From NCBI GenBank assembly GCA_963749535.1, contig CAVVNF010000014.1:2335-66334 (forward strand): a stretch of DNA of 64,000 bases, given 5' to 3'. The notes under the pieces were generated by a model that saw only the letters and a program-made list of their open reading frames with translations, ran no database searches and was not told where the DNA came from. Numbering within the stretch: position 1 is the stretch's first letter; every line of letters begins with the position of its first letter. The DNA is from an uncultured Thermoleophilia bacterium (GTDB taxonomy: Bacteria; Actinomycetota; Thermoleophilia; RBG-16-64-13). The translations under genes were made by a program, and so were the position numbers. Shown here piece after piece: positions 23,756-64,000 of the stretch.

Positions 23756-23797
23756 GGAGAGGAAGCTTAGTCCAGGGTGCATTGGAGGAGGTTTGAT

Positions 23798-26010: not shown

Positions 26011-26037
26011 GCGGATCTGCGCAAGACGGGGAGCAGC

Positions 26038-26277: not shown

Positions 26278-26309
26278 GGGGCAAGTGAGCGGATGGCGAG
26301 GAGTCGGGG

Positions 26310-27101: not shown

Positions 27102-27185
27102 TAAGCCGGTTCTGCCGCACGTGTTGGAGGCGTCAGCGCCGGCGGTCAACTTCAAGATCGATCATCGACGGATGAGGAGGTTTGG

Positions 27186-28223: not shown

Positions 28224-28247
28224 GCGATCAGTGTACCTGTAGGGGTG

Positions 28248-28298
28248 TTGACTTCACTACCTGTGTACTATATTTATATTAAAGTTAATACAAGTAGG
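28248..28298 (+). promoter_or_regulatory. AT-rich internal promoter/operator region
   Basis: TTGACT followed by ACTACCTG, an AT-rich tract and inverted CAAGTAG; -10 spacing ambiguous. Confidence 0.45.
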
Positions 28299-28358
28299 TC
28301 TCTGAGCGTTATGTCACCCAAGCTTCTGTCTAAATCGCCCATACCTGAGGAGTAGCAG

Positions 28359-29511
28359 ATGGCCGCGAACGCAAAGTCCTTTTTCCTGGGAACCAGGCTC
28401 GTACATGGTCTTGGCGCTATCTCTGGGCTGGCCGGCCATGTCAAAGCTCTCGGTGGTACGAAAGCTTTCGTATGCACCGACAAAGGTCTCACCGGCGCCG
28501 GGGTCACCGAGCGGGTCACCGGCATTCTTGATGCGGGTGGCGTGCCGTACGTGGTCTTCGACGATGTCCCTGAGGATCCCGGTGTAGCCGTCGTGGCCAC
28601 CGGAGTCGAGCTTTTCCTCGCGGAGAAGTGCGACGTGATGGTCGCCCTCGGTGGCGGAAGCCCGATGTGCGCGGGCAAGGGCATCGCGCTGGTGGCTGCC
28701 AACGGGGGCACGCTTACCGACTACGAGGGATTCAACAAGGCTGCCAAACCGCCGTACCCGGTGATCGCCATTCCCACCACGGCGGGGTCGGGCACCGAAG
28801 TCTCCAAGGTCAACATCCTCACGGACGAGGCGCGCAACTTCAAGATGTCATTTCTCGATGAGCGCACCTTCCCGAAGATCGCGCTCCTCGACGGCGAGCT
28901 GATGGAAAAGCTGCCCGCATGGCCCGCGCTCGTGGCCGGGATCGACGCTCTGGCCCATGCCCTCGATGCCGTCTGGTCCGTGGGCGCCACCCAGATGTCA
29001 GATGGTCTTGCCATCACCTCGGCGGCGACCATCTTCGAGGCGCTGCCGAAGGCCGCGCTTACCGGCGACCTGGCGGCCAAGCAGACCATGCTCGAGGCCA
29101 GCTCGATAGCGAACATCGCCACGGGCACGTCGCTGCCGGGTCTGGCTCACGTCCTGTCTCAGCCCCTGGGCCGGCTATCACATGGCCCATGGCTTGGCCA
29201 CCGGGATCATGCTCCCGTACACCATGGAGTTCAACCTGCCCGTAGCTTCGCAGAAGCTGGCCCCCATCGCCCGTCTGCTCGGTGAGAGCGGCAGCGACCG
29301 GGAGCTGGCGGAGAGCTTGCTGGGCAGACTTTGGGACATGATGGACGAGGTGGGCCTACCGACTTCCCTCGATCCCACGGTAGTCAAAGAAGAAGACCTC
29401 CCCGTGCTGGTGGAGCAATGCACGAAAGTCGTCAACTACCGGCTGAACCTGAGGTTCGCCTCCCCAGCCGATCTCACGTCGCTGTATATGAAGGCGCTGG
29501 GAAAGGAGTAA
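28359..29511 (+). CDS. Iron-containing alcohol dehydrogenase family (frameshift ~29180)
   Basis: GGGSPM, IPTTAGSGTEVS, DALAHALD, GLAHVLS, HGLA. Confidence 0.9.
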
Positions 29512-29514
29512 TTT

Positions 29515-31395: not shown

Positions 31396-31406
31396 GAAGG
31401 AGAGCA

Positions 31407-33003
31407 GTGGCCTACTACCGCGATTTTAGGGAGTACATCGCCAAACTCGATTCGATGGGCTTGGTGCGCCACATCTCCACTCCCATCAACAAGGACACCG
31501 AGCTCATGCCGCTGGTGCGCCTGCAGTTCCGCGGGCTTCCCATCGAGCAGCGCACGGCATTCGTCTTCGACAACATCCACGATGTGCTCGGCAAGCAGTA
31601 CAACGGCTCACTTGCCGTCTGCGTGCTGGGCGGCAGCCGGCAGATCTACGCCGCCGCTTTGGGGTGCGAGCCGGCCGACATCACCAAACGCTGGGCCGAG
31701 GTGCACCAGAACTACATCGAGCCCAAGATGGTGAGCGACGGCCCCTGCAAAGAGGAGATCCACGTCGGCGACAATCTTCTTGAGCACGACGGCATCCTCG
31801 AGTTCCCGCATCCCATCTCCACCCCGGGCTTCGACCCGGCGCCCTACTTCACATCGCCTTACTGGGTGACCAAGGACCCGGAGACCGGGGAGCGCAACGT
31901 GGGCACCTACCGGGCCATGGTGAAGGGTCCCGCCCGCACGGGCGTGATGGCTCACCAGTCGCAGCACATCGGCATCCACTTTCAGAAGATCCAGCGGATG
32001 GGCAAGAACTGGCTGGAGGCCGCGGTCGTTATCGGCTGCACGCCCGCAGTGGGACTTTGCAGCGTCTCCAAGGTGCCGTATTCGGTGGACGAGTACGCCG
32101 TGGCCGGCGGGATCGCGGGCGAGCCGATCGAGCTGGTGAAGTGCGAGACCGTGGACCTCGAAGTGCCGGCGACCGCGGAGATCGTAATCGAAGGCTGGGT
32201 GGACACCACCTTCCGCGAGAAGGAAGCGCCTTTCGGCGAGTACACCGGCTACATGGGCGGACGGGTGATAAACCCGGTCTTCAACGTGACCGCCATCACC
32301 CACCGCAAGAGACCCGTGTACCAGGCGTTCCTCAGCCAGTTCCCGCCCTCGGAGAGCAGCCTCCTCCGCAAGCTTGGCTACGACGCGGCTTATCTGAAGT
32401 TCCTGCAGCACGACTGCAACATCCCCGGGGTCCTCGACGTGCAGCTCCACGAGGCCACCGGCAGCTACGGTCTCATGGTCATCCAGCTCAAGAAGACTCA
32501 CCCTGCGCAGGCCTGGCAGGCGCTGAACGCGGCGGTGGGTTTCGACCCCACCATCGGCAAGGTGATCGTGGCGGTGGACGACGACATCGATCCCGCCGAT
32601 CCGGACGCCGTCAACTGGGCGCTCGCCTTCCGCATGCAGCCGCACACGGATTCCCGCGTGGTGACCCACAAAGCCTCGATCCTCGACCCGTCTTCGGCGC
32701 CTCCGGAAGCCTCGGTGGACGTCCAACGCTTCCCGCCCCCGGTGGGGACCTCGGGGCTGCTGATCGACGCCACGCGCAAGTGGGGCTATCCGCCCACTTC
32801 GCTGCCGGCCAAGGAGTTCATGGAGAAGCGCCATCGAGCGTTGGAAGGCGGAAGGGCTGCCCGCGCTGACTCTCAAGAAGCCGTGGTTCGGCTACGAGCT
32901 GGGCCATTGGACCGACGAGGAACGAGAAGACGCAGCCAAGGCTATCAGGGGCGAGTACCTGGATACCGGCGTGCGGCTGCAGCAGCATAGAGAGGATCTT
33001 TAG
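31407..33003 (+). CDS. UbiD-family (prFMN) decarboxylase, frameshift near C-terminus
   Basis: NVGTYR, EAPFGEYTGY, PPSESS, VDDDIDP, LIDATRK. Confidence 0.9.
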
Positions 33004-47068: not shown

Positions 47069-47122
47069 TCCCCATCTTGATCCGCCAACTCCGAGGTGCA
47101 TCAATTATGATACACCTCGCCC

Positions 47123-47355
47123 ATGAGCAGACGGCCCAGTACGGGTGGCCTCTCGGAATGCCGCTCGTCCGCAAGATCGAGCCCGGGTTGTGGGAGGTTC
47201 GGTCTGATTTGGCAAGCGGGATCCCGCGGGTGTTATTCACGGTCGAGGGTGGAACGTTAGTTCTGTTGCACGGATTCACAAAGAAATCGCAGAAGATGCC
47301 AGCGGTCGAGCTGAAGACGGCCCGGCAAAGGCTCGCTGGCCTGCGAGAGGAGTGA
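47123..47355 (+). pseudogene. RelE/HigB-like (Gp49-type) toxin, apparently 5'-truncated
   Basis: QYGWPLGMPLVRK, LWEVR, LLHGFTKKSQK; usual N-terminal segment not seen. Confidence 0.65.
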
Positions 47356-47645
47356 TTGGGATGAAGAAAGCACGCATCGGAGGCGACTTCGACGACTTCT
47401 TGAGTGACGAGGGCCTTCTTGACGACGCGGAGGCAGTTGCCGCCAAGCGCGTGATCGCCTTCCAGATCTCGCAAGAAATGGAGCGGTGCAATCTCAGCAA
47501 GTCGGAGATGGCCCACCGGATGCGAACTAGCAGACCAGCCCTTGATCGTCTTCTTGACCCCACGAATCCGTCGGTTACGCTCTCTACTCTGGAGCGCGCA
47601 GCAACAGCGGTGGGCAAGCGACTCAAGATCGAACTCTCGGCTTAG
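47352..47645 (+). CDS. XRE-family HTH antitoxin
   Basis: IGGDFDDFL, SKSEMAHRMRTSRPALDRLLDP, TLSTLERAA. Confidence 0.85.
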   Translation: MIGMKKARIGGDFDDFLSDEGLLDDAEAVAAKRVIAFQISQEMERCNLSKSEMAHRMRTSRPALDRLLDPTNPSVTLSTLERAATAVGKRLKIELSA

Positions 47646-47789
47646 CGGGGACTCACCTCTGCGGGAGTCGCGTGCGGATCCACGCAAAGACGGGGGCCAT
47701 CTTGGTCGCCAGTCTCCAGCCGAAGCCGCATCTCGTCCGAACGCGCTTCCGCGAGAATCGGCCAAGCCCCATCCCTTCCACCATAACGC

Positions 47790-47818
47790 TTGACGTATAA
47801 CGCTACACGTTATAGGAT
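47790..47818 (+). promoter_or_regulatory. higBA promoter with palindromic operator; probable leaderless start
   Basis: TTGACG-17-TAGGAT; palindrome TATAACG-ctaca-CGTTATA between the two hexamers; GTG start 7 nt after the -10. Confidence 0.7.
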
Positions 47819-47824
47819 CACTGC

Positions 47825-48106
47825 GTGATCAAGTCGGTCGCCGACGCCGAGACCGAAAAGGTGTTCCGGCGGGAGTTCTCGCAGAGGCTAGCGGGCGACA
47901 TCCAATCGATCGCATTGCGCAAGCTGCGAATGTTGAACAGCGCGCAGACGGTCAACGACCTTCGCAGTCCTCCTGCCAACCGGCTTGAGAAGTTGAGCTG
48001 ACGGCGCGAAGGCCACTACAGCATCCGTATCAACGACCAATGGCGGGTATGTTTCGCGTGGCGCGACGGCGACGCATACGACGTCGAGATCGTCGACTAC
48101 CACTGA
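47825..48106 (+). pseudogene. higB: HigB toxin with in-frame TGA at codon 59
   Basis: VIKSVAD...[34 protein letters not shown]...IVDYH; TGA at 47999-48001. Confidence 0.85.
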
Positions 48107-48119
48107 AAGCATGGTGATC

Positions 48120-48425
48120 ATGGCCACAAACAAACTCGCGCCGGTCCACCCGGGCGAAGTGCTCTTGGAGGAGTTCCTCAAACCGTTCGAGCTCAGCCAG
48201 AACCGGCTCGCGATCAGCATCGGCGTACCCCCGCGTCGCATCAACGAGATCGTTCTGGGCAAGCGTCGTGTGACGGCCGACACTGCGCTTCGGCTCGGGC
48301 GCTATTTCGACACTAAGCCGCAGTTCTGGCTTGGGCTCCAGGCGGACTACGATCTCGACGTGGCGGCGGACGCGCTCGGGGAACGCTTGGACCTTGAGGT
48401 CCGGACACGGGCCGTAGCGAACTAG
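48120..48425 (+). CDS. higA: HigA antitoxin
   Basis: PVHPGEVLLEEFLKP, RINEIVLGKRRVTADTALRL, FWLGLQADYDL. Confidence 0.93.
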   Translation: MATNKLAPVHPGEVLLEEFLKPFELSQNRLAISIGVPPRRINEIVLGKRRVTADTALRLGRYFDTKPQFWLGLQADYDLDVAADALGERLDLEVRTRAVAN

Positions 48426-48581
48426 CTCTCGTCTCTACCACGGTCCGAGAGGACTCGCGGCGCCTGCTTTGGGGTAGAACGCACGAAAGCGCTCTTGGTC
48501 AATCGCAGCTCCAGGCAGAATCGGCACGGTGGCGGTGACCCCCACTTATCAAAGCCTCGTGACTAAGGAAGAGAAACGGAC

Positions 48582-48980
48582 ATGGAGAAGAGCGGGTCGC
48601 AGGAAAGCAAGTCTCCTTCTCAGCTGATAGACGCGAGAATCGAGGAGTTAGGCGACTGGCGGGGCAATATGCTCAGCCGGCTCCGTGCCTTAGTCAAGGA
48701 AGCCGATCCGGAATTCGTCGAGGAGTGGAAGTGGAGAGGGGTTCCGGCGTGGTATCACGACGGATTGGTCTGCACAGGCGAGACATACAAGAACGTCGTG
48801 AAGATGACCTTCGCCAAAGGGGCGGCTCTGAAGGATCCTTCGGGCCTCTTCAACTCCAGTCTTGACGGGAACACGAGGCGTGCCATCGACTTCCACGAGG
48901 GCGAGAAGATAGACGAGGAGGCGTTGAAGATTCTCGTTCGCGCCGCCGTGGCTCTGAACAAGTCCACAGCCCAGAGCTAA
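48582..48980 (+). CDS. DUF1801/YdhG-like protein
   Basis: LGDWRG, EEWKW, KMTFAKGAALKDPSGLFNSSLDGNTRRAID. Confidence 0.85.
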   Translation: MEKSGSQESKSPSQLIDARIEELGDWRGNMLSRLRALVKEADPEFVEEWKWRGVPAWYHDGLVCTGETYKNVVKMTFAKGAALKDPSGLFNSSLDGNTRRAIDFHEGEKIDEEALKILVRAAVALNKSTAQS

Positions 48981-49062
48981 TCCACGGGATGGGGATAGGT
49001 CGCATGGCCGGCCTTTCGACGCCTAACAGGCGCATCTAGCGGGTGGCCGGAGGTCGATCAGT

Positions 49063-49362
49063 GCGACGACCGTCACTACGATCCACTACCTCGCCTCAAA
49101 AGCGGTAGGTACCGCGGCGGCTGCGGACCACGTGCGCGTGCTCCTGGCGATATTCGACGTGGCGGGCGTCGACCGGGAAGTCTTGCCTGGTGCCCTCGAC
49201 ACAGGCTTTCCCGACTACGAAGACGCCGCCTTGCACGAGGCGGCGTGCGCGGCTGGCGCGGCCGCCATAGTCACCCACAACGGCAAGGACTTCTCACGCT
49301 CGCTGCTTCCGGTATCCGATCCGCCAGAGCTGCTGGCGGCCGTGCGGGCTGGCTCAGAATGA
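49063..49362 (+). pseudogene. PIN-domain toxin remnant lacking N-terminus
   Basis: TTVTTIHYL...DYEDAALHEAA...IVTHNGKDF; first catalytic Asp segment absent. Confidence 0.7.
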
Positions 49363-50422: not shown

Positions 50423-51316
50423 ATGCCGCTCAGCTACAAAGTCTTTCTGCACAGCCATTCCGGCTTCAACAGCACCTCCACCCTGTTCTACGGGGAGAAG
50501 GATGCCGTCCTCATCGACGCGTGCCAGCTCCTGAGCGACGCCCATCGGCTGGCCGCCGAGCTGCTGCTCACGGGTAAGAATCTCACCCATATCTACGTCT
50601 CGCATTTCCACCCCGACCATCACTTCGGCCTGGGAGTGTTGCAGTACGCGTACCCCAACGCCCGGATCGTCGCCTTGCCCAGCGTGGTCAAGGACATCGT
50701 CTTCACCACCAACGACAAGATCTTCATGTGGGGCGGCTTCTTCGGCAAGAACGAGCCCGATAAGGTGGTCTTCCCCATGCCGCTCGTCGATGCCCGCCTC
50801 GAGCTGGAAGGCCACGAGCTGCAGTTCTCCGACAATTGGGAGGGAGACAGCGCGAACAACAGCGTGGTATGGGTGCCTTCGTTGGGCGTCGCCTGTGCCA
50901 CCGACGTCGCCTTCATCGACTGCCATCTGTGGACCGCCGAAAGCGACGCCACCCGGCGCGTGAAGTGGAGGGAATCCATCCGCAAGCTGGGCGATTTCGG
51001 CGCCCGAGTCGTCGTCCCCGGCCACTGCAGCCCCGAGACTTTGCACCTGGAAGGCACGGGGTGCATCGACTTCTCGCTCAAGTACCTCGATGTGTACGAG
51101 GACGTGCTCTCCAAAGCCAAGACCGGTGAAGAACTGGTAGCGGGCATGGAGCGGCACTATCCGGGGATGAAGGCCGAAGACTTCGGCGTGCAGTGGCAGG
51201 CCCGACTGCTGTTTCCCAGGAGTTGCCCCGATTGGTTCGCCAAGCTGCCGGGCAAGCCTGGAGAGATCTTCCTCGACCCGAGCGGAAAATACATCGGCGA
51301 GCCTCCAAGGGAGTAA
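50423..51316 (+). CDS. MBL-fold metallo-hydrolase
   Basis: VLID, SHFHPDH, VVPGH; RBS GAGGAGG. Confidence 0.88.
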   Translation: MPLSYKVFLHSHSGFNSTSTLFYGEKDAVLIDACQLLSDAHRLAAELLLTGKNLTHIYVSHFHPDHHFGLGVLQYAYPNARIVALPSVVKDIVFTTNDKIFMWGGFFGKNEPDKVVFPMPLVDARLELEGHELQFSDNWEGDSANNSVVWVPSLGVACATDVAFIDCHLWTAESDATRRVKWRESIRKLGDFGARVVVPGHCSPETLHLEGTGCIDFSLKYLDVYEDVLSKAKTGEELVAGMERHYPGMKAEDFGVQWQARLLFPRSCPDWFAKLPGKPGEIFLDPSGKYIGEPPRE

Positions 51317-51499
51317 GGTGCGGGACTGGCCAGGCGCCCTCGACCTCGAGCCCGACCTCGCCCCGGGGTGCGCCGCCACGAGAGGGTCGAATTCCGGCTT
51401 TGGTGCCATCTGTCGCTGCGAGACCGGGTGGGGTCGCCAGATGCCGGAGCTTCGCGCGGGTGGCGCGGCGTTGGGCTCTCCGCCCGGGCAGCCGAGTGA

Positions 51500-51930
51500 C
51501 GCGGGTCTTGCCGGCGGAGATGATCGTGGGCATGTTCTCCGACCGCATCGGCCGGGGGCGTGCGATCGCCGTGGCCTGCCTGCTCGATGCTCTCGCCGCC
51601 TTCCTGCTCACCTTCTGGCCCAGCCTGCCCGTGTTGGTCATCGCCTCGGCGATCTTCGGCGTGAGCGCCTTCGGCATACCGGGCTTGGTGGGGGCGGCCT
51701 GTGGGGATGAGTTTGGAGCTATGCTTGCCACTGCGTCGCTCGGTTTCGTGACGATCTTCATCGGCGTGGGCCAGGGCGTAGGCCCGTACGTGGGTGGGAG
51801 GATGGAGGACGCCTTTTCCTCTCTGGGACCGTCCTACCTGCTCTCTGCCGGACTGTTCGTCGCGGCGGCCTTGTCGGCGTTGTTCCTTCGCCGAGGGAGC
51901 CCGGCGCAAAGCGTCGCCGAATGCGATTGA
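51500..51930 (+). pseudogene. MFS transporter C-terminal remnant
   Basis: GMFSDRIGRGR, GVGQGVGPYVGG; only about four TM helices, N-terminal part missing. Confidence 0.65.
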
Positions 51931-52023
51931 CTCCGTCACGCAAGTGGTCTAGGGTACGGGCCACCCGGAGCAGACCCGGCGGTCGGCTGGGCGCCGGTCT
52001 GGGTGGGCCCGGCGGTTCGAGGG

Positions 52024-52055
52024 TTGACTCCCGTTTTTGGTTAGTGTACGCTAAC
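52024..52055 (+). promoter_or_regulatory. Promoter of acp operon with operator palindrome over the -10
   Basis: TTGACT-17-TACGCT; GTTAGTGTACGCTAAC (52040-52055, 14/16 palindromic). Confidence 0.65.
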
Positions 52056-52080
52056 TAGCAATCGCACGAAGGGAGACCTG

Positions 52081-52332
52081 ATGGCTAGTCTCAGAGATAA
52101 TGTCAGTTCGACGATGTACGCAGCGATCTCGGCCACCATGAACAAGCCGGTGGCGGAGTTGAGCGACAGCACCGAGATCATTGCCGATTTGGGCGCGAAG
52201 TCGGTCAACTTCGTCAGGATCATCAGCGCTCTCGAGGACGAGTTCGAGCTCGAGATCCCATTCATGGAGTTTCGTCGCAAGAAGACCATCGGCGAAGCGA
52301 TCGACTACATTGTCCAGTTGCACGAATCCTAA
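52081..52332 (+). CDS. Acyl carrier protein with DLGAKSV motif
   Basis: 83 aa; DLGAKSVNFVRIISALEDEFELEIP, TIGEAIDYI. Confidence 0.85.
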   Translation: MASLRDNVSSTMYAAISATMNKPVAELSDSTEIIADLGAKSVNFVRIISALEDEFELEIPFMEFRRKKTIGEAIDYIVQLHES

Positions 52333-52367
52333 CTCTGGCCGACGAAAGGCACATAAGGGGAACGCTC

Positions 52368-54095
52368 ATGACTGACGATGGACGGATCAAGATCAGAGAG
52401 AAGTTCGGAGACGAGGAGATCGAGGTCATTTACAGACCTTCGCCACCGCCGGTGGATCCGATGAACCAGAACCTGGACGGGCTGGGCTTCCACCCGCCAC
52501 TGAACCAGCGCACCTACATTGAAGACGGCATCCGCGTCGACCAAGATGTCCCGGTGAAACTGCGCGACGGCGTCACTATCTATGTCGATATCTACCGCCC
52601 CGACGGCCCGGAGGGATTGACCAACCTTCCCACCATCCTCGCGTGGTGCTTCTTCGGCAAACGCCCGGGTGACAGCCCCAAGACCTGGCAGGCCTTCGGC
52701 GTGCCCCCGGACACCGTCTCGCGCATGGCCCGCTTCGAAGGCCCGGACCCAGCCTATTGGTGCCGCCAGGGCTATGCTGTCGTAAACGCGGACTCTCGCG
52801 GCGCGGGCCACTCGGAGGGCAATCTTGTGGTCTGGGGTGAGCAAGACGGGCGGGATGGAGCGGATACGATAGACTGGATCGGCAGCCAGGTCTGGTCCAA
52901 CGGCAAGGTGGGCATGTTCGGCAACTCGGGGCTGGCCATGTGCCAGTGGTGGATCGCGGCGGAGCAGCCCTCGCATCTGGCCTGCATCGCGCCTTGGGAA
53001 GGCACGGCCGACCTCTATCGCGAGTTCTTGACCGAGAACGGCATTCCCTGTCCGGGCTTCGTCAATTTCGTCATGGGCAACCAGAGCGGGCCCGCCTACA
53101 TCGAGGACTTCGTCGAGATGCTGGCGAAGCACCCGGAGTGGAACGCCTATTGGGAGTCTAAGATCCCCCGTTTTGAGAAGATCCGCATCCCGGCTTACGT
53201 GACAGGGAGCTGGAGCCATCTGCATCTGCGCGGCGCCGTGACCGGCTTCCGCAAGATCCGTTCCCCGAAGAAATGGCTGCGCATCCACCGCGACTTCGAA
53301 TGGCCGGACACCTACGCCTGGTGGAACCAGGAAGACCTCAAGCGTTTCTTCGACCGCTATCTGAAAGGGGTGCGCAACGGGTGGGAGCTCACTCCGCGGG
53401 TGCGCCTGGAGATCATGGACGCCTATGAGTACGACCTCCAGGTGAATCGCCCCGAGAAGGAGTTTCCTCTGGCCCGCACCGTATATGAGAAGCTCTACCT
53501 GGACGCCAGCCGGGGGGCTCTAACAGCCGAGCCGGTCGCCACCGTCGCCAAAGCCGCCTACGATGCAAACGAAGGACTCACTACCTTCGACATCACGTTC
53601 CAGGAGGACATCGAGCTCACCGGCTTCATGAAGGCCCATCTGTGGGTGGAGGCCGAGGGCCACGACGAGATGGACCTGTTCCTTACCGTGATGAAGCTTG
53701 ATGAGAACGGAGAATGGCTGCCCACCATCGTGTTGGGCGAACCTCACCCCGGTGCCTGGGGCAGGCTGCGTGTATCCCACCGGCAACTCGACCCCGACCA
53801 GTCCACCGACTACCAACCGGTGCAGTCGCACCGCGTATCCGAGAAGTTGAGGCCCGGCGAGGTCGTCCTCGTTGAAGTTCCCTTCTATCCCCTGGGCAGG
53901 ATCTGGCACAAGGGCCAGCAGCTACGCCTCCAGATCGCCGGCCACTACATCCGCGAGGGCTGGTTCGAGCCGTTCTCCTGGGACACGGACAACAAGGGCA
54001 ATCACGTGGTCCACACCGGCGGCCAGTACGACTCGTATCTGCAGATCCCGACCGTTCCGCCCAAGTATCGGGCCGGGGACTACATCTACCGGTAG
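52368..54095 (+). CDS. CocE/NonD-family serine hydrolase/acyltransferase
   Basis: LRDGVTIYVDIYRP, DSRGAGHSEG, WSNGKVGMFGNSG, PWEG, GRLRVSHR. Confidence 0.9.
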   Translation: MTDDGRIKIREKFGDEEIEVIYRPSPPPVDPMNQNLDGLGFHPPLNQRTYIEDGIRVDQDVPVKLRDGVTIYVDIYRPDGPEGLTNLPTILAWCFFGKRPGDSPKTWQAFGVPPDTVSRMARFEGPDPAYWCRQGYAVVNADSRGAGHSEGNLVVWGEQDGRDGADTIDWIGSQVWSNGKVGMFGNSGLAMCQWWIAAEQPSHLACIAPWEGTADLYREFLTENGIPCPGFVNFVMGNQSGPAYIEDFVEMLAKHPEWNAYWESKIPRFEKIRIPAYVTGSWSHLHLRGAVTGFRKIRSPKKWLRIHRDFEWPDTYAWWNQEDLKRFFDRYLKGVRNGWELTPRVRLEIMDAYEYDLQVNRPEKEFPLARTVYEKLYLDASRGALTAEPVATVAKAAYDANEGLTTFDITFQEDIELTGFMKAHLWVEAEGHDEMDLFLTVMKLDENGEWLPTIVLGEPHPGAWGRLRVSHRQLDPDQSTDYQPVQSHRVSEKLRPGEVVLVEVPFYPLGRIWHKGQQLRLQIAGHYIREGWFEPFSWDTDNKGNHVVHTGGQYDSYLQIPTVPPKYRAGDYIYR

Positions 54096-54117
54096 GCGCG
54101 GGAAGCTTCGAATATGC

Positions 54118-54150
54118 CGGGCCAAGCCGCCTGGGAGACGGCTTGGCCCG
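54118..54150. terminator. 12-bp hairpin between cocE and acpS
   Basis: CGGGCCAAGCCG-cctgggaga-CGGCTTGGCCCG. Confidence 0.55.
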
Positions 54151-54216
54151 AAAAGCGCGTGAGGGCTGCCAGACTTTGGCCGGCCGGTCCTAGTGTCATG
54201 GGGGGAGGAGTCGCGA

Positions 54217-54612
54217 ATGGCCATGCTCCTAGGGGTAGGAGCCGATATTATACGGGTGGAACGGATCCGCTCCTGCCTCGACTCAGAGCCCTTCATGAAA
54301 GCGACCTTCACCGAAACTGAGATACACCTGGCGAGATCACGGCCTGACCCGGGCGCCTACTACGCCAAGCTGTTCGCCGGCAAGGAGGCGGTCTTCAAGT
54401 GCTTCGGGATGCCGGCGGACTCTCTCGAGTCCTGGCTGGACATCGAGATCGTCGACGGTGAGCACGGCCAGCCGGAGGTGGGCATCCGCGGCTCCCTGGC
54501 CACAGTGGCGGAATCCCGCCGCGTGAAGCGGGTGCTTCTGTCACTCTCGTACGATACTGAATACGCAATGGCGGTCGCCGCCTTGACCGAGGGGGTCGAT
54601 GATGACGGGTGA
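54217..54612 (+). CDS. acpS: Holo-ACP synthase
   Basis: GVGADII, FTETE, FAGKEAVFKC, LSLSYD. Confidence 0.9.
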   Translation: MAMLLGVGADIIRVERIRSCLDSEPFMKATFTETEIHLARSRPDPGAYYAKLFAGKEAVFKCFGMPADSLESWLDIEIVDGEHGQPEVGIRGSLATVAESRRVKRVLLSLSYDTEYAMAVAALTEGVDDDG

Positions 54613-55636
54613 TTTCATGGCTATGCTCGAGAAAAGGGCCCGTGCCAACGTCCAAAAGGTCGTCTTGCCGGAGTCCGAGGAAGAGAACATCCTGAAGGCT
54701 GCTCGCCTGGCCGTGGATGATGGGCTGGCGCTGCCCATCCTTCTGGGCGACCCGGAGCAGCTCGCGGCTCGAGCGGCGGAGTTCGGTCTCACCCTCGACG
54801 GGATGGAGATCATCAATCTGGGGGACCCCGTTGCGCTGGCCGAGCTTGCCGAGCAGTGCACGGCTTTGCATCCTGAGATCTCCGCAAAGGGGGCGGAGCG
54901 GAAGATGCGCACCCCGCTGAACGCAGCGGCGATGCTGGTCGCCGCCGGCCGGGCCGATGCGTTGGTCGTGGGGTTGCAGCACGCCACTCAGGACGTGATC
55001 CTCGCGAGCATGACCTTCATCGGCATGGAAGAGGGCATCTCGGTGCCGTCGAGCCTGTTCCTCATGCGGGTCCCCGGCTACGAGGGCCCAGAGGGCGAGC
55101 TCATCGTCTTCGCCGATTGCGCGGTGGCGGTGGCTCCGGATGCGGCCGAGCTTGCCGACATCGCCATAGCCACGGCCCATACTGTGCGGGCCTTGCTGGG
55201 CTGGGAGCCCCGGGTAGCGATGCTTTCCTTCTCTACCAAAGGCAGCGGAGACCACGAGTCGGTGGATCGAGTGCTCGAAGCCCTCAAGATGGTCCGGGAG
55301 CGCGAACCCGACCTGGTCATCGACGGGGAGCTACAGGTGGACGCGGCCATCGTCCCGGCGGTGGCGGCGCGCAAGGTCCCTGAGGGCAGTGCTGTGGCCG
55401 GCCGCGCGAACGTCCTCATCTTTCCCGACCTCAACTCCGGCAACATCGCCTACAAATGCGTGCAGCGGTTCGCCAAGGCCGATGCCTTCGGTCCGCTCCT
55501 GCAGGGGTTCGCCAAGACGGCGAGCGATCTCTCCCGAGGCTCGTCGGTGGCCGACATCCTGGGCGCGGTTACCATGGCCGCCGCTCGCGCTCAAGGCCTG
55601 AAAGCTGAGGCTGGTGGGAGAGAAAAAGGGAAGTGA
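54599..55636 (+). CDS. pta: Phosphate acyltransferase (PTA/PTB family)
   Basis: VLPESEE, FADCAV, VAMLSFSTKGS, DGELQVDAA, FPDLNSGNIAYK, DLSRG. Confidence 0.92.
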   Translation: MMTGDFMAMLEKRARANVQKVVLPESEEENILKAARLAVDDGLALPILLGDPEQLAARAAEFGLTLDGMEIINLGDPVALAELAEQCTALHPEISAKGAERKMRTPLNAAAMLVAAGRADALVVGLQHATQDVILASMTFIGMEEGISVPSSLFLMRVPGYEGPEGELIVFADCAVAVAPDAAELADIAIATAHTVRALLGWEPRVAMLSFSTKGSGDHESVDRVLEALKMVREREPDLVIDGELQVDAAIVPAVAARKVPEGSAVAGRANVLIFPDLNSGNIAYKCVQRFAKADAFGPLLQGFAKTASDLSRGSSVADILGAVTMAAARAQGLKAEAGGREKGK

Positions 55637-56855
55637 AAGTCCTTGTTCTGAACTGCGGCAGCTCCTCCATCAAGTATCAGCTCAATGACGCCGCCGCGCG
55701 CGTGGTGCTGGCGCGGGGCATCGTCAGCCGCATCGGCGAGAAGAGCGGGCGGATGGACTTCGAAGCCAGGGGGGCGTCGTCCAGCCGAGAGGTGGTCGTG
55801 CCGGACCATGGGCGCGGACTCGAGCTCATCCTGGAGGCGCTGGTGGGCCCGGGGACCGGAGTACTGACGGACGTTTCGGAGGTCTCTGCGGTGGGTCACC
55901 GCGTCGTGCATGGCGGTAGCTTCTTCAGCAGCCCGGCTCTCATCACTTCAGACGTCATCGACAAGATCCAAGAGTGTGTGCCATTGGCCCCCTTGCACAA
56001 TCCGCCCATCCTGGTGGGGATCCGCGAGGCCATGCGGATACTGCCCGAACACCCCCCAGGTCGCGGTCTTCGACACGGCCTTCCACGCCAACATGCCGCC
56101 CCGGGCCTACACGTACGCCCTGCCAGTTGCGTACCGGGGCGAATACGGCGTGCGTCGCTACGGCTTTCACGGCAGCTCCTTCGAATACGTGAGCCGTCGG
56201 GCGGAGGTCTTGCTCGGCCGGCCTCTGCTCCGAGATGAAGATGATCATCGCCCATCTCGGCAACGGCGCCAGCATCACTGCCGTCGACGGCGGGCACTCC
56301 GTCGACACCAGCATGGGCATGACCCCGCTCGAAGGACTGGTAATGGGCACGCGCTCGGGCGATGTCGACCCTGGCATCGTGCTTTACATGATGCAGCAAC
56401 TCGGCTTCTCGGCGAGCGACGTGGACCGGGTCCTCAACCGGGAGAGCGGCCTCCGTGGCCTTTCCGGGGTGAGCAACGACATGCGCGACGTGCTGCGCGG
56501 CGCCGCGGCCGGCGATGAGCACTGCCGGCTTGCTCTGGACGTCTACGGTTACCGTCTGAAGAAATACATCGGGGCCTTCGCCGCCGCCATGGGAGGGCTC
56601 GACGCTCTGATCTTCACGGCCGGCGTCGGAGAGAACGGGGCGCAGATCCGGGCCGCGGCCTGCGAGGCTTTGTCGTTTCTGGGCATCGAGATCGACATCG
56701 CCGCCAATACCGCGGTGATCGGGGTGGAGGGCGATATAGGCGCCCCTGGCTCGAAAGTGCGTGTGCTGGTCGTGCCCACGGACGAAGAGCAATTGATCGC
56801 CGAGGAGACGATGGCAGTCGTGGTCGCGCAGGTCCCGGAGACTTCCGGCGGATGA
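55633..56855 (+). CDS. ackA: Acetate kinase, frameshifted
   Basis: [54 protein letters not shown]. Confidence 0.93.
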
Positions 56856-56895
56856 CGGCCAGGGACAGGGGTTCGATAGCGGATCCAGGGGGTCG

Positions 56896-57397
56896 GTGGT
56901 GAATCGAAAAGTGATCGGCGCGCAGAATGTGAGCCGCATGTGCATCGTCTGCGGCGTCGAGAACGCGGCTGGTCTCAAGGGCCGTTTCTACGAGCTCGAA
57001 GGCGACGAGCTGCTCGGCATCTTCACTCCCCAGGTGGAACACCAGGGCTATCCCGGCCGGTTGCATGGCGGCGTAGCCTCGATGGTGCTGGACGAGACAA
57101 TGGGAAGAGCCGTTAACCTCGAGGACCGGGACGCCTGGGGAGTCACGTTACAGCTCTCGGTGAAGTACCGGAAACCTGTACCGCTGGACCAGGACATCCG
57201 CGTCATTGCCCGCATCACTAAAGATTCGGGTCGGATGTTCGAAGGGAACCGGGGAGATCGTCCTCGAAGACGGCACCGTTGCCGTTGAAGCTCACGGCAA
57301 GTACCTCCGACTGCCCATCGACCGCATCGTCGAAGGCGGCTTCAGCTCCGACTGGTTCGCGGACGCGCGGGAAGCGCCCGACGAGGTGGAGCTGTAA
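56896..57397 (+). CDS. PaaI/hotdog thioesterase (frameshift ~57245)
   Basis: CIVCGVEN, HQGYPGRLHGGVASMVLDETMG. Confidence 0.85.
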
Positions 57398-57975
57398 TGA
57401 CCCGCTGCGCGTGGGCGGGGGACGAACCCTTGTATGTCGATTACCACGACACCGAGTGGGGCGTGCCGGTCCACGACGACCGCCTGCTCTTCGAGTTCCT
57501 TGTGCTGGAAGGAGCGCAGGCCGGCTTGAGTTGGCTGACGATCCTGCGCAAACGCGAGGGTTACAGGAAGGCCTTCGCTGGGTTCGAGCCGGAGCGGGTC
57601 GCCGCGTTCGGTGCGCACGATGTCGAACGTCTGCTCGCGGATCCGGGCATCATCCGTAACCGGCTCAAGGTGGAGTCGGCGGTATCCAACGCTCGCGCCC
57701 TGCTCTTAGTGCAAGAGGAGTTCGGCAGCTTCGATGCATACAGCTGGCAGTTCGTGGGAGGCCGGACCATCCACAACGAATGGCGGACGATGGAGCAGAT
57801 CCCCGCGAAGACGCCTGAGGCCGAGGCCATGAGCCGGGATCTCAAGCGGCGGGGCTTCCGCTTCGTGGGGCCCACGATCTGCTACGCGCACATGCAGGCG
57901 ACAGGCATGGTGAACGACCATACCGTCGATTGCTTCCGGTGGGCGGAACTGAAAGGAGAAGCCGGTAGCCGGTAG
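57397..57975 (+). CDS. tag: DNA-3-methyladenine glycosylase I
   Basis: RCAW, YHDTEWG, LEGAQAGLSW, GFRFVGPTICY, VNDH. Confidence 0.95.
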   Translation: MTRCAWAGDEPLYVDYHDTEWGVPVHDDRLLFEFLVLEGAQAGLSWLTILRKREGYRKAFAGFEPERVAAFGAHDVERLLADPGIIRNRLKVESAVSNARALLLVQEEFGSFDAYSWQFVGGRTIHNEWRTMEQIPAKTPEAEAMSRDLKRRGFRFVGPTICYAHMQATGMVNDHTVDCFRWAELKGEAGSR

Positions 57976-58109
57976 CCGAGCCGCCCGGAGGCGGGCGACC
58001 CGAAGTCGGTGGTTCGAGGCCGCCGACCAAGAGGCAGGCGACCGGCAGCCGACCGACCGGGCTGGGGCGCGTCGGAGCCGAACGATGACGACAGCGGAAA
58101 GGGGCGTCG

Positions 58110-58694
58110 ATGACCAAGACGGCTGAAGAGCTCTACCAGGAACGTATGCGCCGACTCCAGACGGCCGTGCACCTGGGCACGCCGGACCGGGTTCCGCTCT
58201 CCCTTGTCATGGACGCGTTCGCTGCTCGCGTCACGGGCGTGAAGCTGTCCGATTTCGTGAACGACATGGATGTAGCCGGCTAGGCCATGCTGGACGCGAT
58301 GGAGCTGCTGGGCGACGTCGACTCCATCCAATTTGCCACTTATCAGCCGGCCGTTTTGGGAGTGCAAGCCGCCCTGGGCGCGATCATGGTCGAGAAGCGA
58401 GAGCAAGCGCGTCAACTTGTGCGCGCTGTCGGACCCACGGGCTACTGGGTGGGAGGCTGGCGTACGGCGCCGGAATTCCTTGCTCCTAAATTCTGGGACC
58501 GCTTCGTCTGGCCGTATCTAAAGGAACTCGTGGAGATCGTTGCCGAAGAAGGGGGCACGCCGGATGAGGTCCATGCCTACTTCAAGCGGCTTATCAACGA
58601 GGTCGGCGCCGGCGCCCTCCTCGCCCAGGGCTGCGCCATCCCGCCCGACGCCAAGCTCGAGAATGTCCGCTCCATGGTCGACGCGGTGCAGTGA
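58110..58694 (+). pseudogene. Uroporphyrinogen decarboxylase/MtaA-family protein with in-frame TAG and internal deletions
   Basis: PDRVP, TAG at 58281-58283, FWDRFVWPYLKELV, GTPDEV, GCAIPPDAKLENV; only ~195 codons. Confidence 0.7.
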
Positions 58695-58917
58695 TCGTGC
58701 CGGAAGTGCCGCTGAGCAGATGCCCACCAAGGAGACAACGCCAATGAACCGCGCATTTGATAACGTCGCCCCTTACGGTTCGTTTCAAAATGAAGCTTTG
58801 GCAGCCGACTCAGCGCCACCAGCTACGCGGCCGACCGGTCATCGACGGCAGCCGACCGACCATCGCCGAACGTGCCGCTTCCGGGCGCGTCGTTCGTATG
58901 GCTCCGTCAGATGACCA

Positions 58918-59837
58918 TCACGACCGAGTGAGCACGGCTTTGCCGCGCACCCGGCGCTCGCGCAACGCGTCGAGGACCTCGAGCGTGTCCTTCCAATTGC
59001 GTACCAGGCCTAGCAGCGGCTTGACCCGACCGTCGGCCACCAAGTCCACCAGAACAGCCAGGTCCTCCCCGCGGGTCTCCTCCGGATAACCATGGAAGAG
59101 CGGGACGACCTTGCAGGAGGGTCCTCGCGGGAAATCCAGCAGCCCCAACGGCGCCGATCCGCCCAGCGTGCCGTAGGTGACCGCCGTGCCTCCCGGATTC
59201 AGATGATGCACCGAGTCGGCGAGCACCTGGCCGCCGATCCCGTCGAGGATCAGGTCGAACTTGCCCAGCCCACGTCATCGAGCGAGGTGGCTACTTTGTG
59301 TGCGCCATATGCTCGGGCTTCCGCCTCCCTCTCCGGCCCTACCACCAGAGCCGTGACGTGCGCGCCGGCCGCCGCGGCGAGCTGCATCGCGAACTGGCCC
59401 ACCCCGCCGGTTGCGCCGGTCACGAGCACCCGCTTGCCCAGGAGTGACTCGCCCAGGCGGATGGCCCGCACCGCCGTGATCCCGGCGATGGGCAATGAGG
59501 CTGCCTCCTCGAAAGACACGTTCTCCGGCAAGGCGACCGCAAGATGTGACGGCACCGCCACCCGTTCCGCCCAGCATTCCCAATCCACCACGCCAACCAC
59601 ACGGGTTCCGACAGCCGGCCCGGTGCCGTCTTCCGCGCCACGGACGACGACGCCTGCCAGATCTTGACCCGGCCTCCAGCCGTCCGGCCGCATCTTCAGA
59701 AGGAACAGCTCGCCGCGATTGATCGAGTACGCCCGCACCTCCACCAGCAGTTCGTTCGCCGCCGGCTTGGGTTCGGGCAGGTCGTCGGCAAGGCGCAACC
59801 CGCCGGGCACTGCAGGGTCGGTGATGTATCCCTTCAT
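58918..59837 (-). CDS. MDR-family quinone oxidoreductase-like protein, frameshifted
   Basis: SINRGE, PGQDLAG, LPIAGITA, VTGATGGVG, GKAVL. Confidence 0.85.
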
Positions 59838-60994: not shown

Positions 60995-61933
60995 CTACTC
61001 GTCTAGCGCCGGAGGAGTCTCCGGCTTGCGCGTCGCCACTTCCTGGATCAGTTCCTCATATGGGGCGATTCGGGAGTCGATATCGACCTCTCCACTCATG
61101 GCTGCCAGCGCGGCCAACCATAGCCACAGATGAAGTCTCACCGTGTCTGCCCTGGTGATTCGCTCATCCCAGGATGCTCTCATGCTGGCGGCGTGGTGCG
61201 CCCCGATCAAGCTGTAGCACAAAAGGTCGAGAGAAATAGGAGGAGGGGGAGACCCAGGCGGCCTGACGCTTTCAAATTCTATCTTGATCCGGGCGACGAC
61301 GTCTTCCCACGCCTGCTCCGAGAGTCTGTGCTTTTCAGCCTCGCTCAGCGAATGGTCGGAATCGATCTGCGCCAAGACCTGCGAGCCGAATTCGTTAGCT
61401 CGATGGTCGGCCAAGAGACGCCACAATAGCCTCTCACCCAGGTCCTCGGTCTCGGTCAACTTGGGTTCCACAAAGGCAAGGTTCCACGAAAGGAACGTCT
61501 CGAAGGACTCCACGAATAGTTGCAGCTTGCTCGGAAAGTGGCTGTAGAAGACCTGCGAGGTAATACCGAGCCTCCGGATTATCGTCGCGATGTGGGTCTC
61601 CTTGTACCCCTTGGCGGCGAACTCTTCGGTGGCGACCCGCAGTATGGCTCGGCGCATCCGCTCGTTTTCCTGACCGGCGAGATCCACGTCGTTCGTGCTT
61701 GCCCTGGCCAAGTCCGGCGCCAACTCGGCCTTGATCTCCGCCAGGGAGCGGCCGGCCTTCTTGAGTTTCGCAGTCCGCTTCAGAAGCCGCACATGGTCTT
61801 CTGTGTACAGGGAGCGGCCGGCCGCAGTCTTTTGGGGTGCGGGGAGCAGACCTTCTCGGACGTAGAAGTGGACGGTGCTGCGAGAGACTCCCGTCTCCTT
61901 CTCAAGCGTGGATATTGTCAGCGCTTCGGCGAT
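60995..61933 (-). CDS. MerR-HTH fused to TetR-family regulator; apparent ATC start
   Basis: LTISTLEKETGVSRSTVHFYVREGLLP (MerR) in frame with ILRVATEEFAAKGY...FYSHFPSK (TetR); GGAGGG 7 nt before ATC. Confidence 0.8.
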   Translation of the reverse strand: MAEALTISTLEKETGVSRSTVHFYVREGLLPAPQKTAAGRSLYTEDHVRLLKRTAKLKKAGRSLAEIKAELAPDLARASTNDVDLAGQENERMRRAILRVATEEFAAKGYKETHIATIIRRLGITSQVFYSHFPSKLQLFVESFETFLSWNLAFVEPKLTETEDLGERLLWRLLADHRANEFGSQVLAQIDSDHSLSEAEKHRLSEQAWEDVVARIKIEFESVRPPGSPPPPISLDLLCYSLIGAHHAASMRASWDERITRADTVRLHLWLWLAALAAMSGEVDIDSRIAPYEELIQEVATRKPETPPALDE

Positions 61934-62165: not shown

Positions 62166-63045
62166 GTGGTCAAGTGGATCCAGCTGCTTGTGACCGGCGT
62201 CACCCTGGGCAGCATCTACTCGCTGATCGCTCTCGGCTACGTCACCATCTACCGGACTTCTCGCATCGTGAACATGTCCCAGGGCGCGTTCGTCATGTTC
62301 GGAGCTTTCTTCACCTATTCGTTCTTGAGCGAGATCGGTCTTCCCTATTGGCTGTCCGCGATCTTCGGCATCGTTGTCGTCGTGATAATCGCGGTGGTGA
62401 TGTACCTGCTGGTGCTCCGACCTCTCATCAAGATCTCCCTGGTATCGATCATCCTCGCCACCATGGCGCTGAGCATACTGTTCGAGAACGTCTCGCTCCT
62501 CCGCTGGGGGGGGTTACGGGAAGAGCGTCCCGGCCTTCACGGGTGACAAGGCGCTCTTCTTCGGGAAGGTCGCGGTCTTTCCCCAGAGCCTGTGGGTGAT
62601 CGGTCTGATGGTCCTGGTACTCGTCGGCTTGTATGCGCTGACCAATCGCACCCGGGTCGGCAAGCAGATGACCGCCACTGCCAACGATCCAGGAGCGGCG
62701 AGCCTCTCCGGGGTGAGTACCGGGCGGATGATCATTCTGGCGTTTGCCATCTCGGCGGCGATCGGAGCCCTTGGGGGTATCGCCATTACCCCCATCAACT
62801 CGACCAACTACCTGTCGGGGGGTATCTACGCCTTGAGCGGTTTCGTGGCCGCCATCCTGGGCGGTTGGGGATCGAGTTCCGGGGCGGTCGTGGGCGGTCT
62901 CGCGCTCGGCATCATCGAGTCACTCGTCACCGGTGTCCTGCCGACCGGCTACCAGGATGCGGTCGCCTACGCCCTCCTTATCCTCCTCCTTTACTTCAGG
63001 CCCAGCGGTCTGCTCGGCGTTCCCTCGAGCGAAGGGGAGGCGTGA
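62166..63045 (+). CDS. Branched-chain amino acid-type ABC permease (LivH-like), frameshifted
   Basis: GSIYSLIALG, VNMSQG, AAILGGWGS, FRPSGLLG. Confidence 0.88.
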
Positions 63046-64000
63046 TGGGGCCATCACGAGCGGCCGCCGCCCCATCCCGTCGCATGTCCTGGAGTCGGAA
63101 CAGAGGCCTCTTTTTCAAGGCGCTCCTAGTCGTCATCCTGCTTGTCTGGCCGCTTCTCTACCAAAGCGCCTACACCATGCGGATCATGACCACGGGCGGC
63201 CTGTGGGCGATCATCACGATTGCAGTGGTCGTCATCCTGGGACAGGCCGGCCAACTCTCGTTCGGGCACTCGGCCTTCTACGGGATAGGTGCCTACACGG
63301 CCGCGTTGCTCGTCATCAAGGTCTCGTTGCCCTCGTTCCCGGCCCTTATCGTCGGGGCGCTCGTCCCGGGCGTTATCGCCCTAATCGTGGGCAGGCCGGT
63401 GCTCAAACTTCGTTACTTCTACCTGGCCCTGGCCACGATAGGCCTGGGGCAGATCTTCCTGGTCCTGGTGACTCAGCTCCGCACGATCACCGGCTCGACT
63501 ACAGGACTGGCTCCGATCCCGACCCTCTCCATCTTCGGCTTCAACTTCAACAGCAACCTGCGTCAGTACTATCTCATCTGGGTCGTGGCGGTCGTCGTCA
63601 TCCTATTCATCGACCGTGCCGTCAAGTACCGCGTGGGACGGGCGCTCCGTGGCTTGGCGACCAGCGAGATCGCCTCCTCGACCCTCGGCGTGCGGACCGC
63701 CAACTGGAAACTCCTCGCGTTCGTCACTAGCGCGGTCATCTGCGGGTTGGCCGGTGGTCTCTTCGCCTTCGTCAGCATGGCGATCACTCCGAACTCCTTC
63801 ACCTTCACGGCCGCGATCCTCCCCATCGTCATGATGCTCATCGGAGGCGGGTCGGTATGGGGCGCGGTTATCGGAGCGATCCTGATGACCTGGGTCATCA
63901 ACGGGTTCACAGCCGTTGAGCAGTACAGCGGGGTGATCTACTCGGTCATCATGATCCTGCTCCTCATCTTCCTTCCCGCGGGGCTTGCCCTCCAGCCCCA
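63045..64000 (+). CDS. LivM-like ABC permease, partial
   Basis: GQAGQLSFGHSAFYGIGAY, YLALATIG, GRALRG, MMLIGG. Confidence 0.85.
   Translation, partial: MGPSRAAAAPSRRMSWSRNRGLFFKALLVVILLVWPLLYQSAYTMRIMTTGGLWAIITIAVVVILGQAGQLSFGHSAFYGIGAYTAALLVIKVSLPSFPALIVGALVPGVIALIVGRPVLKLRYFYLALATIGLGQIFLVLVTQLRTITGSTTGLAPIPTLSIFGFNFNSNLRQYYLIWVVAVVVILFIDRAVKYRVGRALRGLATSEIASSTLGVRTANWKLLAFVTSAVICGLAGGLFAFVSMAITPNSFTFTAAILPIVMMLIGGGSVWGAVIGAILMTWVINGFTAVEQYSGVIYSVIMILLLIFLPAGLALQP

Follow-up and report, generated by a model that had tools for sequence, protein, structure and literature searches.

A dedicated acyl carrier protein gene linked to phosphotransacetylase and acetate kinase genes in an uncultured Thermoleophilia bacterium and its relatives

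The stretch of DNA considered here (the window, 64,000 nucleotides in length) is part of contig C14 of G000, the 2.75 Mb, 84% complete genome assembly of an uncultured Thermoleophilia bacterium from peat soil (GCA_963749535.1) whose close relatives are labelled as Thermoleophilia or Actinomycetes metagenome-assembled genomes. The window carries a run of six genes encoding an acyl carrier protein (ACP), a CocE/NonD-family serine enzyme, the phosphopantetheinyl transferase AcpS, a Pta-family phosphotransacylase, an acetate/propionate kinase (Ack) and a hotdog-fold thioesterase (Table 1). A preliminary description of the sequence had named these six families, all of which are found by open reading frame (ORF) listing and family scans, and the packing of the genes is operon-like as well, with overlaps of 14 nt between AcpS and Pta and of 4 nt between Pta and Ack, and remaining gaps that span 35-97 nt. 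What that description overlooked is that, as assembled, the kinase and thioesterase genes each lie in more than one frame. Its statement that the window has no ketosynthase or adenylation gene agrees with a Pfam scan of 55 ORFs from the 18-64 kb part of the window, none of which matches either type of enzyme.

Table 1. Genes and sequence elements of the gene run, with window positions and the evidence for each assignment
Feature	Position	Strand	Evidence or comment
Acyl carrier protein (ACP), 83 amino acids	52081-52332	+	PF00550 (PP-binding), 35.4 bits against a cut-off of 20.8
CocE/NonD-family serine hydrolase or acyltransferase, 575 amino acids	52368-54095	+	TIGR00976, 213.6 against 66.3; Peptidase_S15 and PepX_C
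AcpS (4'-phosphopantetheinyl transferase), second, cluster-specific	54193-54612	+	PF01648, 51.9 against 25; TIGR00556, 67.9 against 45.35
Pta-family phosphotransacylase, 345 amino acids	54599-55636	+	PF01515, 340 bits; NF007233, 323.6 against 310
Acetate/propionate kinase (ackA), three frames	55633-56855	+	PF00871 profile positions 1-139, 136-197 and 201-392
Hotdog-fold (4HBT) thioesterase, two frames	56896-57397	+	PF03061, 33.5 bits
-35-like hexamer TTGACT upstream of the ACP gene	52024-52029	+	Read directly
Inverted repeat GTTAG-N6-CTAAC, possible operator	52040-52055		Overlaps a weak -10-like TACGCT
TetR-family gene downstream of the module	60995-61792	-	

The ACP, which carries the motifs DLGAKS and IPFMEFRRKKTIGEAID, belongs to a distinct ACP family and lies below every NCBIfam cut-off for AcpP (TIGR00517 and NF002148-51; best score 46 bits against 66). 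Ser41, the phosphopantetheine site within DLGAKS, is the only column that is invariant across 45 members of this family. AcpS falls slightly below the cut-off of the acpS equivalog TIGR00516 (55.1 against 59.8), and its true start probably lies some codons inside the ORF; Pta, similarly, is slightly below that of TIGR00651 (309.1 against 311.2).

Both the ACP and the AcpS of the cluster are extra, dedicated copies, as had been suggested in the preliminary description, since G000 encodes an ordinary AcpP (PF00550, 53 bits) beside plsX, rnc, smc and ftsY on contig C19 and has its other ACPS domain in a protein fused to YjeF_N and Carb_kinase (G000:C14:218148-220211). When a profile of the ACP family was run over 41 related genomes the scores fell into two peaks, with this family at 117 bits or more and AcpP-like proteins at 61 bits or less. 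Matches in the upper peak come from G000, G001, G006, G014, G018 and G023, with fragments in G002, and in all seven of these ACP-holding genomes a second ACPS gene adjoins the ACP gene; a YjeF-fused or long-frame AcpS is encoded elsewhere in every genome of the family except the 64%-complete G024. No member of the ACP family was found at E ≤ 1e-22 in 400 further genomes drawn evenly from the phylum, so the module is rare in the phylum rather than typical of it. G023 holds three copies of the special ACP, on contigs C164, C194 and C130: CocE lies right behind ACP on C164 and C194 (of these two, only C194 runs on into Pta) and nearby on C130.

The arrangement as a whole is present in seven of the 41 related genomes and in dozens of metagenome contigs, which exceeds chance by far. 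The gene order ACP-CocE-AcpS-Pta-Ack recurs in G001, G006 and G014, whilst G023 has ACP-CocE-Pta at a contig end and G002 has the cluster in broken form. Eight of the best 80 genome loci encoding CocE relatives carry the ACP, five of them (one truncated) in the family itself; the other three, L031 (labelled Dehalococcoidia), L032 and L034 (both labelled Actinomycetota), have the order ACP-CocE-Pta-Ack-AcpS among unrelated genes, L031 and L032 being minimal five-gene units. The conserved set requires neither a coenzyme A (CoA) transferase nor a thiolase. The acp-cocE-acpS-pta synteny by which the preliminary description had set store is thus present, and the same genes are also found, more tellingly, reshuffled in distant lineages, so that the refuting outcome named there, an absence of conserved synteny, is not what is observed. 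In G018 (locus L023, G018:C24, 6706-15725) three tandem copies of CocE, the third of them broken, lie between ACP and AcpS-Pta, and genes for a solute-binding protein and a MerR/TetR-fusion regulator are interspersed among them.

Searching metagenome contigs with an alignment of the ACP family gave 63 loci. In 20 of them, three of which are near-identical, the flanks reach 4 kb or more in both directions. Counting partners within 6 kb of the ACP gene in these well-flanked loci, Pta is present in 20/20, CocE in 18/20, an Ack- or Buk-type kinase in 14/20 and AcpS in 12/20; the thioesterase is present in 0/20. The linkage of ACP to Pta is therefore strict, and it holds across at least six gene orders: ACP-CocE-AcpS-Pta-Ack, ACP-CocE-Pta-Ack-AcpS, ACP-AcpS-Pta-Ack without CocE, Pta-Buk-ACP-CocE, AcpS-ACP-CocE-Pta-Buk and ACP-2 kb-CocE-Pta. 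The CocE-less order is seen in L112-L115 and L117, flanked by thiolases in L114 and L115 and by an E2 and E3 pair in L117; a further thiolase-linked version is L155. Five sister loci that were tested have a kinase clearly of the butyrate type (NF002834, 413-458 bits against 222); four of the five have ACP, and the fifth, L049, comprises Pta-Buk-CocE at the start of a contig with no ACP in view. From the partner counts and the order variants across loci we conclude that the constant core is ACP, Pta and kinase, and that CocE is the commonest of several partner enzymes. The thioesterase, which had been counted as a member of the set, is a genus-specific add-on that lies outside it, being found among the related genomes only in G000, G001 and G002. 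The metagenomes in which the module occurs are from peat, permafrost and sediment.

The Pta gene is the only PTA_PTB match in G000. PTA_PTB matches are found in 11 of the 41 related genomes and, within the family, in nine of 25 (the seven ACP holders together with G003 and G008), none being found in the remaining 16. Pta is thus an accessory gene that travels with ACP and not a housekeeping gene of the family; the possibility, raised in the preliminary description, that it is the sole housekeeping pta of the genome stands only in so far as no other pta was found in G000. The protein resembles the solved class-I Ptas (E-values from 1e-72 to 1e-56) and keeps the catalytic DLSRG motif (Ser309/Arg310 in the numbering of MtPta), which is conserved in all 130 sequences of an alignment made up of 10 Ptas from the loci and the 120 best database matches, all at least 57% identical.

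The CoA site is another matter. Counting positions in an alignment with PgPta of Porphyromonas (6iow), with the four-residue offset checked on Ser311/Arg312, Leu135 of the window Pta corresponds to Arg135 of PgPta (Arg133 of MtPta) and His91 to Arg89 of PgPta (Arg87 of MtPta). The column equivalent to Arg133 holds leucine in 94 of the 130 sequences, valine in 21, methionine in 11, phenylalanine in four and arginine in none, against arginine in four of the four PDB Ptas compared. In the Methanosarcina enzyme MtPta both arginines belong to CoA site 2 and their main effect is on Km, according to the excerpted text of PMC6461089. Judged from the alignment, their loss would suit a substrate without the nucleotide part of CoA.

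A database protein of 492 amino acids, P0100, combines ACPS and PTA_PTB domains in one chain, its N-terminal part being 37% identical to the cluster AcpS. The window Pta matches PTA_PTB only and not PF02504, the PlsX family. Prediction of a complex between Pta and ACP, run without controls, gave scores of 0.10 and 0.10 against a mark of 0.32 and is evidence in neither direction. Pta of this subfamily is found also in two genomes that lack the special ACP. In G003 (L101, G003:C118, 2326-6149) it stands in a row of genes that begins with a PhlG-type DAPG hydrolase and continues through Pta and Ack to a nitroreductase. In G008 (L102, G008:C84, 6194-9595) E1 alpha, E1 beta and a stand-alone lipoyl protein of 83 amino acids precede a Pta that lacks the arginines; no E2 catalytic domain is visible there, a transhydroxylase-like molybdenum enzyme lies ahead of these genes, and the locus may represent a second case of a small carrier protein ahead of an arginine-less Pta.

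The CocE/NonD protein has both the Peptidase_S15 and the PepX_C domains over their cut-offs and, by eye, no obvious signal peptide. Its nearest solved structure is 3ib3 (E 1e-91), a CocE/NonD hydrolase with no function in its title. Similarity to cocaine esterase covers residues 55-219 and a weak second stretch at 324-394 (E about 1e-21); within the first, Ser187 (in GNSG) aligns with the nucleophile serine of the GVSY motif of cocaine esterase, and Ser187 and His307 are invariant in 43 CocE homologues. The stretch of cocaine esterase that we take to bear the catalytic Asp fell outside the alignment, and the acidic residue of the triad was not placed. In a tree of 45 CocE sequences the ACP-linked proteins form two well-supported clades (8 and 3 rows). 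Four residues, P114, F220, P300 and E458, are common to both clades and rare in 34 other homologues; no obvious docking patch is found among them. All nine ACP-linked CocEs compared, from the two clades together, have Glu458, which none of the 34 other homologues has.

Clues to the metabolic setting come from the related loci. A full-length orthologue of the Pelobacter pyrogallol-phloroglucinol transhydroxylase, a molybdenum enzyme (E = 0 and 1164 bits over the full length of the pyrogallol hydroxytransferase large subunit), immediately precedes the module in G006 and G023, accompanied by its small subunit, an SDR and a SnoaL-like protein. The module of L154 is adjoined by a 'cyclase', an SDR and an HMGL-like gene, and a 3-hydroxyacyl-CoA dehydrogenase is present in L132 and G018. 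The anaerobic phloroglucinol pathway, as set out in the excerpted text of PMC10470551, comprises an SDR reductase, a ring-opening hydrolase of the 'cyclase' family, an enzyme resembling 3-hydroxyacyl-CoA dehydrogenases (TfD) and a BKACE lyase (TAL), the 'cyclase' family being that of dihydrophloroglucinol cyclohydrolase; from the same excerpts, published phloroglucinol clusters often include acetate kinase, phosphate acetyltransferase and a DAPG-hydrolase-like phloretin hydrolase. Among the annotated loci none shows a BKACE lyase, and thiolases are confined to the three loci named above. On gene content, the ACP and CocE would appear to occupy the place of the CoA-dependent steps in polyphenol clusters. 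The SDR beside the module in G006 has generic SDRs as its best 60 PDB matches, none of them named phloroglucinol reductase.

Two further acetate kinase paralogues and a FolE2-like (GCHY-1) gene make up a triad (L024, 11411-14507; L104 on G000:C26, 5759-8891) that lies directly behind the module in G006 and on a separate contig in G000. The FolE2-like gene was considered as a candidate for the dihydrophloroglucinol cyclohydrolase and dropped, since PMC10470551, in the part drawn on here, puts that enzyme in the 'cyclase' family.

Our preferred reading of these data, to which we assign a little less than an even chance, is that the private ACP, activated by its own AcpS, replaces CoA ahead of phosphotransacetylase and acetate kinase in a patchily distributed, self-contained catabolic module. 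In such a scheme, the serine of the CocE/NonD enzyme would receive a short acyl group from an energy-rich donor, and the enzyme would pass it to the phosphopantetheine thiol of ACP; the Pta-family enzyme would then phosphorolyse the acyl-ACP to acyl-phosphate and holo-ACP, the chemistry of PlsX, and a kinase (for acetate in the window, for butyrate in many sister modules) would make ATP. The hotdog thioesterase of this genus might serve to free mis-acylated ACP. For five genes that move together as one unit, the simplest interpretation is an ACP that shuttles an acyl thioester between CocE and Pta.

The preliminary description had looked to ester or amide bonds as the source of the acyl group. 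This is energetically unlikely: an oxygen ester or an amide has a lower group-transfer potential than a thioester, and plain esters and amides are for this reason improbable donors. Thiol cleavage of a beta-dicarbonyl C-C bond, on the other hand, is favourable, as in thiolase reactions. The metabolic contexts described above point to triketide-like intermediates, and the most likely donors would be products of anaerobic breakdown of the phloroglucinol/pyrogallol type, that is, beta-dicarbonyl C-C bonds or activated esters. Put more generally, and with somewhat greater caution, the module can be read as a device for CoA-independent substrate-level phosphorylation, in which an ACP filled by interchangeable loaders (CocE here, a thiolase or a 2-oxoacid-dehydrogenase E2 elsewhere) would supply a specialised Pta and a kinase for acetate or butyrate, so that the energy released on cleaving C-C or acyl bonds during polyphenol breakdown would be banked as ATP instead of lost to hydrolysis.

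A number of points weigh against replacement of CoA by the ACP. No polyphenol-pathway gene adjoins the module in the window: neither an SDR, a 'cyclase', a 3-hydroxyacyl dehydrogenase nor a BKACE lyase lies beside it there, and the related loci have partial sets. In this assembly neither ackA nor the thioesterase gene keeps to one frame. The arginine-less Pta subfamily occurs also in G003 and G008, genomes without the special ACP, which means that loss of the arginines is not specific to the use of ACP, and from its sequence the window Pta may yet use CoA. The two clades of ACP-linked CocEs have CocEs without an ACP between them. The known partners of carrier proteins among the alpha/beta-hydrolases (thioesterase domains and type II thioesterases) unload carriers and do not load them, and acyl transfer to a thiol from an oxygen ester runs uphill.

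The last of these considerations lead naturally to a serious rival, which we regard as unlikely but by no means negligible, that the flow is reversed: kinase and Pta would spend ATP to load a free short acid onto ACP, via acyl-phosphate, and CocE would unload it. This would amount to activation at the cost of one ATP without CoA, with CocE either acylating an acceptor or cleaving or cyclising an ACP-bound beta-keto chain. Pta and Ack are both reversible, the normal direction for serine alpha/beta-hydrolases is to take acyl groups over from carrier thioesters, and the alpha-amino-acid ester hydrolases of the CocE family perform acyl transfer. In G006, moreover, three Ack paralogues lie in a row behind the module, one of which could activate whilst another harvests. 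Set against this, in G006 and G023 the module ends a cluster of the trihydroxybenzene fermentation type, and in known organisms such fermentation reportedly gains its ATP solely via Pta-Ack, a finding said to go back to Brune and Schink in 1992. Reversed flow would also leave the holders of the module without another Pta to obtain ATP from acyl thioesters, and the genes conserved with the module include none that is biosynthetic or that would form an acceptor.

A second and less probable alternative is that Pta and Ack are ordinary CoA enzymes within catabolic islands that end in acetyl-CoA, with ACP, AcpS and CocE doing a separate job and the linkage reflecting shared regulation. We consider this improbable, although the pairing of acetate kinase with phosphate acetyltransferase is, as noted, frequent in the published phloroglucinol clusters (PMC10470551, excerpts), the window Pta scores above the NF007233 cut-off as a normal phosphotransacetylase would, and G003 and G008 have the same Pta subfamily with no special ACP. 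The minimal five-gene units of L031, L032 and L144, which are without any acyl-CoA-making enzyme, are difficult to accommodate in such a scheme. So too are the linkage of ACP to Pta in every well-flanked locus across shuffled orders (the CocE-less ACP-AcpS-Pta-Ack among them), the existence of the AcpS-Pta fusion P0100 and the loss of both CoA-site arginines.

This leaves the frameshifts. The ackA gene is broken near 56044, in a run of six C, and near 56228, and the thioesterase gene is broken near 57242-57247, beside short G runs. The ackA orthologues of G001, G014 and G006 each occupy a single frame (that of G001 scores 480.9 against 293.4 for the acetate/propionate kinase family, PF00871 and TIGR00016), and the G001 thioesterase orthologue is intact at 166 amino acids. 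To check the breaks, contigs from four peat-metagenome runs were aligned to 55600-57400, giving relatives that are about 95% identical. One contig from run X1 covers the whole of this interval, with 78 differing letters and three gaps, and is short by one base at 56044, at 56228 and at 57247; X4 is short by one base at 56044 and at 57242, and X2 by one at 57247. Omission of one base per break yields open frames of 406 codons (ackA) and 166 codons (thioesterase) that end at the existing stops. Because the contigs of the peat relatives lack one base at each break, we read the frameshifts as probable indel errors of the assembly.

Split and truncated genes are seen elsewhere in the window also (58287-59837, 51193-51930, 62166-63995 and 18066-18758), among them a zinc alcohol dehydrogenase in two ORFs (58918-59837), a C-terminal fragment of URO-D, the C-terminal half of an MFS protein, a permease in two ORFs and a partial Bmp; the presence of so many split genes nearby fits an indel-prone assembly better than selective decay. 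That the module is instead a decaying relic in this genome, with three real +1 shifts inside 1.3 kb that make pseudogenes of ackA and the thioesterase gene among neighbours that are broken too (the alcohol dehydrogenase, URO-D and MFS genes just listed), is very improbable given the homopolymer settings of the breaks, the restoration of full-length frames by exactly the bases that the relatives lack, and the intact state of CocE, Pta, ACP and AcpS.

The DNA upstream of the ACP gene had been described as a promoter with an operator palindrome. The hexamer and the inverted repeat listed in Table 1 do exist, but they are kept only in the two aligned sequences closest to the window, namely G001, where the arms of the repeat are 6 bp long (GGTTAG/CTAACC), and metagenome contig L107, and in none of four other aligned upstream regions; a scan of 51700-58200 for sigma-70-type consensus promoters returned no sites. 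A terminator scan of the same interval called one terminator-like site, inside ackA, and shuffled controls gave more.

On its 5' side the module is preceded by toxin-antitoxin genes, a Vmh-type MBL hydrolase and the MFS fragment, with about 1 kb extra between the MBL gene and the MFS fragment in G002. The small toxin-antitoxin-like genes (Gp49-like with HTH, and a PIN fragment) are at 47077-49362, close upstream, and a PIN and nucleotidyltransferase pair flanks the module in L032. On the 3' side are a DNA-3-methyladenine glycosylase gene (tag), a dehydrogenase, a nitroreductase and the TetR gene. Further away, at 23777-33000, two aldehyde:ferredoxin oxidoreductases, a ThiS-like protein, a UbiD-family decarboxylase and alcohol dehydrogenases are found together, a group that points to anaerobic metabolism of acids and aromatics.

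How does the module relate to systems already described? All of its components belong to known families. In the Pta-AckA pathway, acetyl-CoA is converted to acetyl-phosphate and then to acetate with formation of ATP. The module shares with this pathway both enzyme families, the adjacency of their genes and the catalytic Ser-Arg pair of Pta, and differs from it in being joined to a private ACP and usually its own AcpS, in lacking the equivalents of Arg87 and Arg133, in being accessory and in often having a butyrate kinase. PlsX converts acyl-ACP and phosphate to acyl-phosphate and ACP, exactly the chemistry proposed for the window Pta, and its fold is distantly related to that of Pta. It belongs, however, to a different Pfam family from the window protein, the PlsX of the genome is encoded beside AcpP on G000:C19, and the enzyme feeds lipid synthesis and not a kinase. 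Cocaine esterase, the alpha-amino-acid ester hydrolases and 3ib3 have in common with the window CocE the two-domain family and the position of the nucleophile serine; to our knowledge, none of them works with a carrier protein. The pathways for phloroglucinol and pyrogallol in Pelobacter acidigallici and in Clostridium scatologenes (PGR-DPGC-TfD-TAL; excerpted text of PMC10470551) are matched in related loci by the transhydroxylase, SDRs, 'cyclase' and 3HCDH-like genes, and differ in that the annotated loci have no visible TAL and the window has no pathway genes beside the module. A full-text search of the literature found no description of an ACP/Pta/Ack, phloroglucinol-ACP or CocE-ACP-kinase arrangement, in agreement with the earlier view that no such system had been described.

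If Pta-family enzymes do take acyl-ACP, this would be an exception to the textbook rule that fermentative ATP is made via CoA thioesters, and the common annotation 'phosphate acetyltransferase' would hide a second activity. The module would then represent a small five-gene cassette for acyl traffic between carrier proteins and ATP. Occurring as it does in peat, permafrost and sediment, and lying in part behind enzymes of pyrogallol and phloroglucinol metabolism, it may bear on how anaerobes obtain energy from polyphenols, a process that matters to the storage of carbon in peat.

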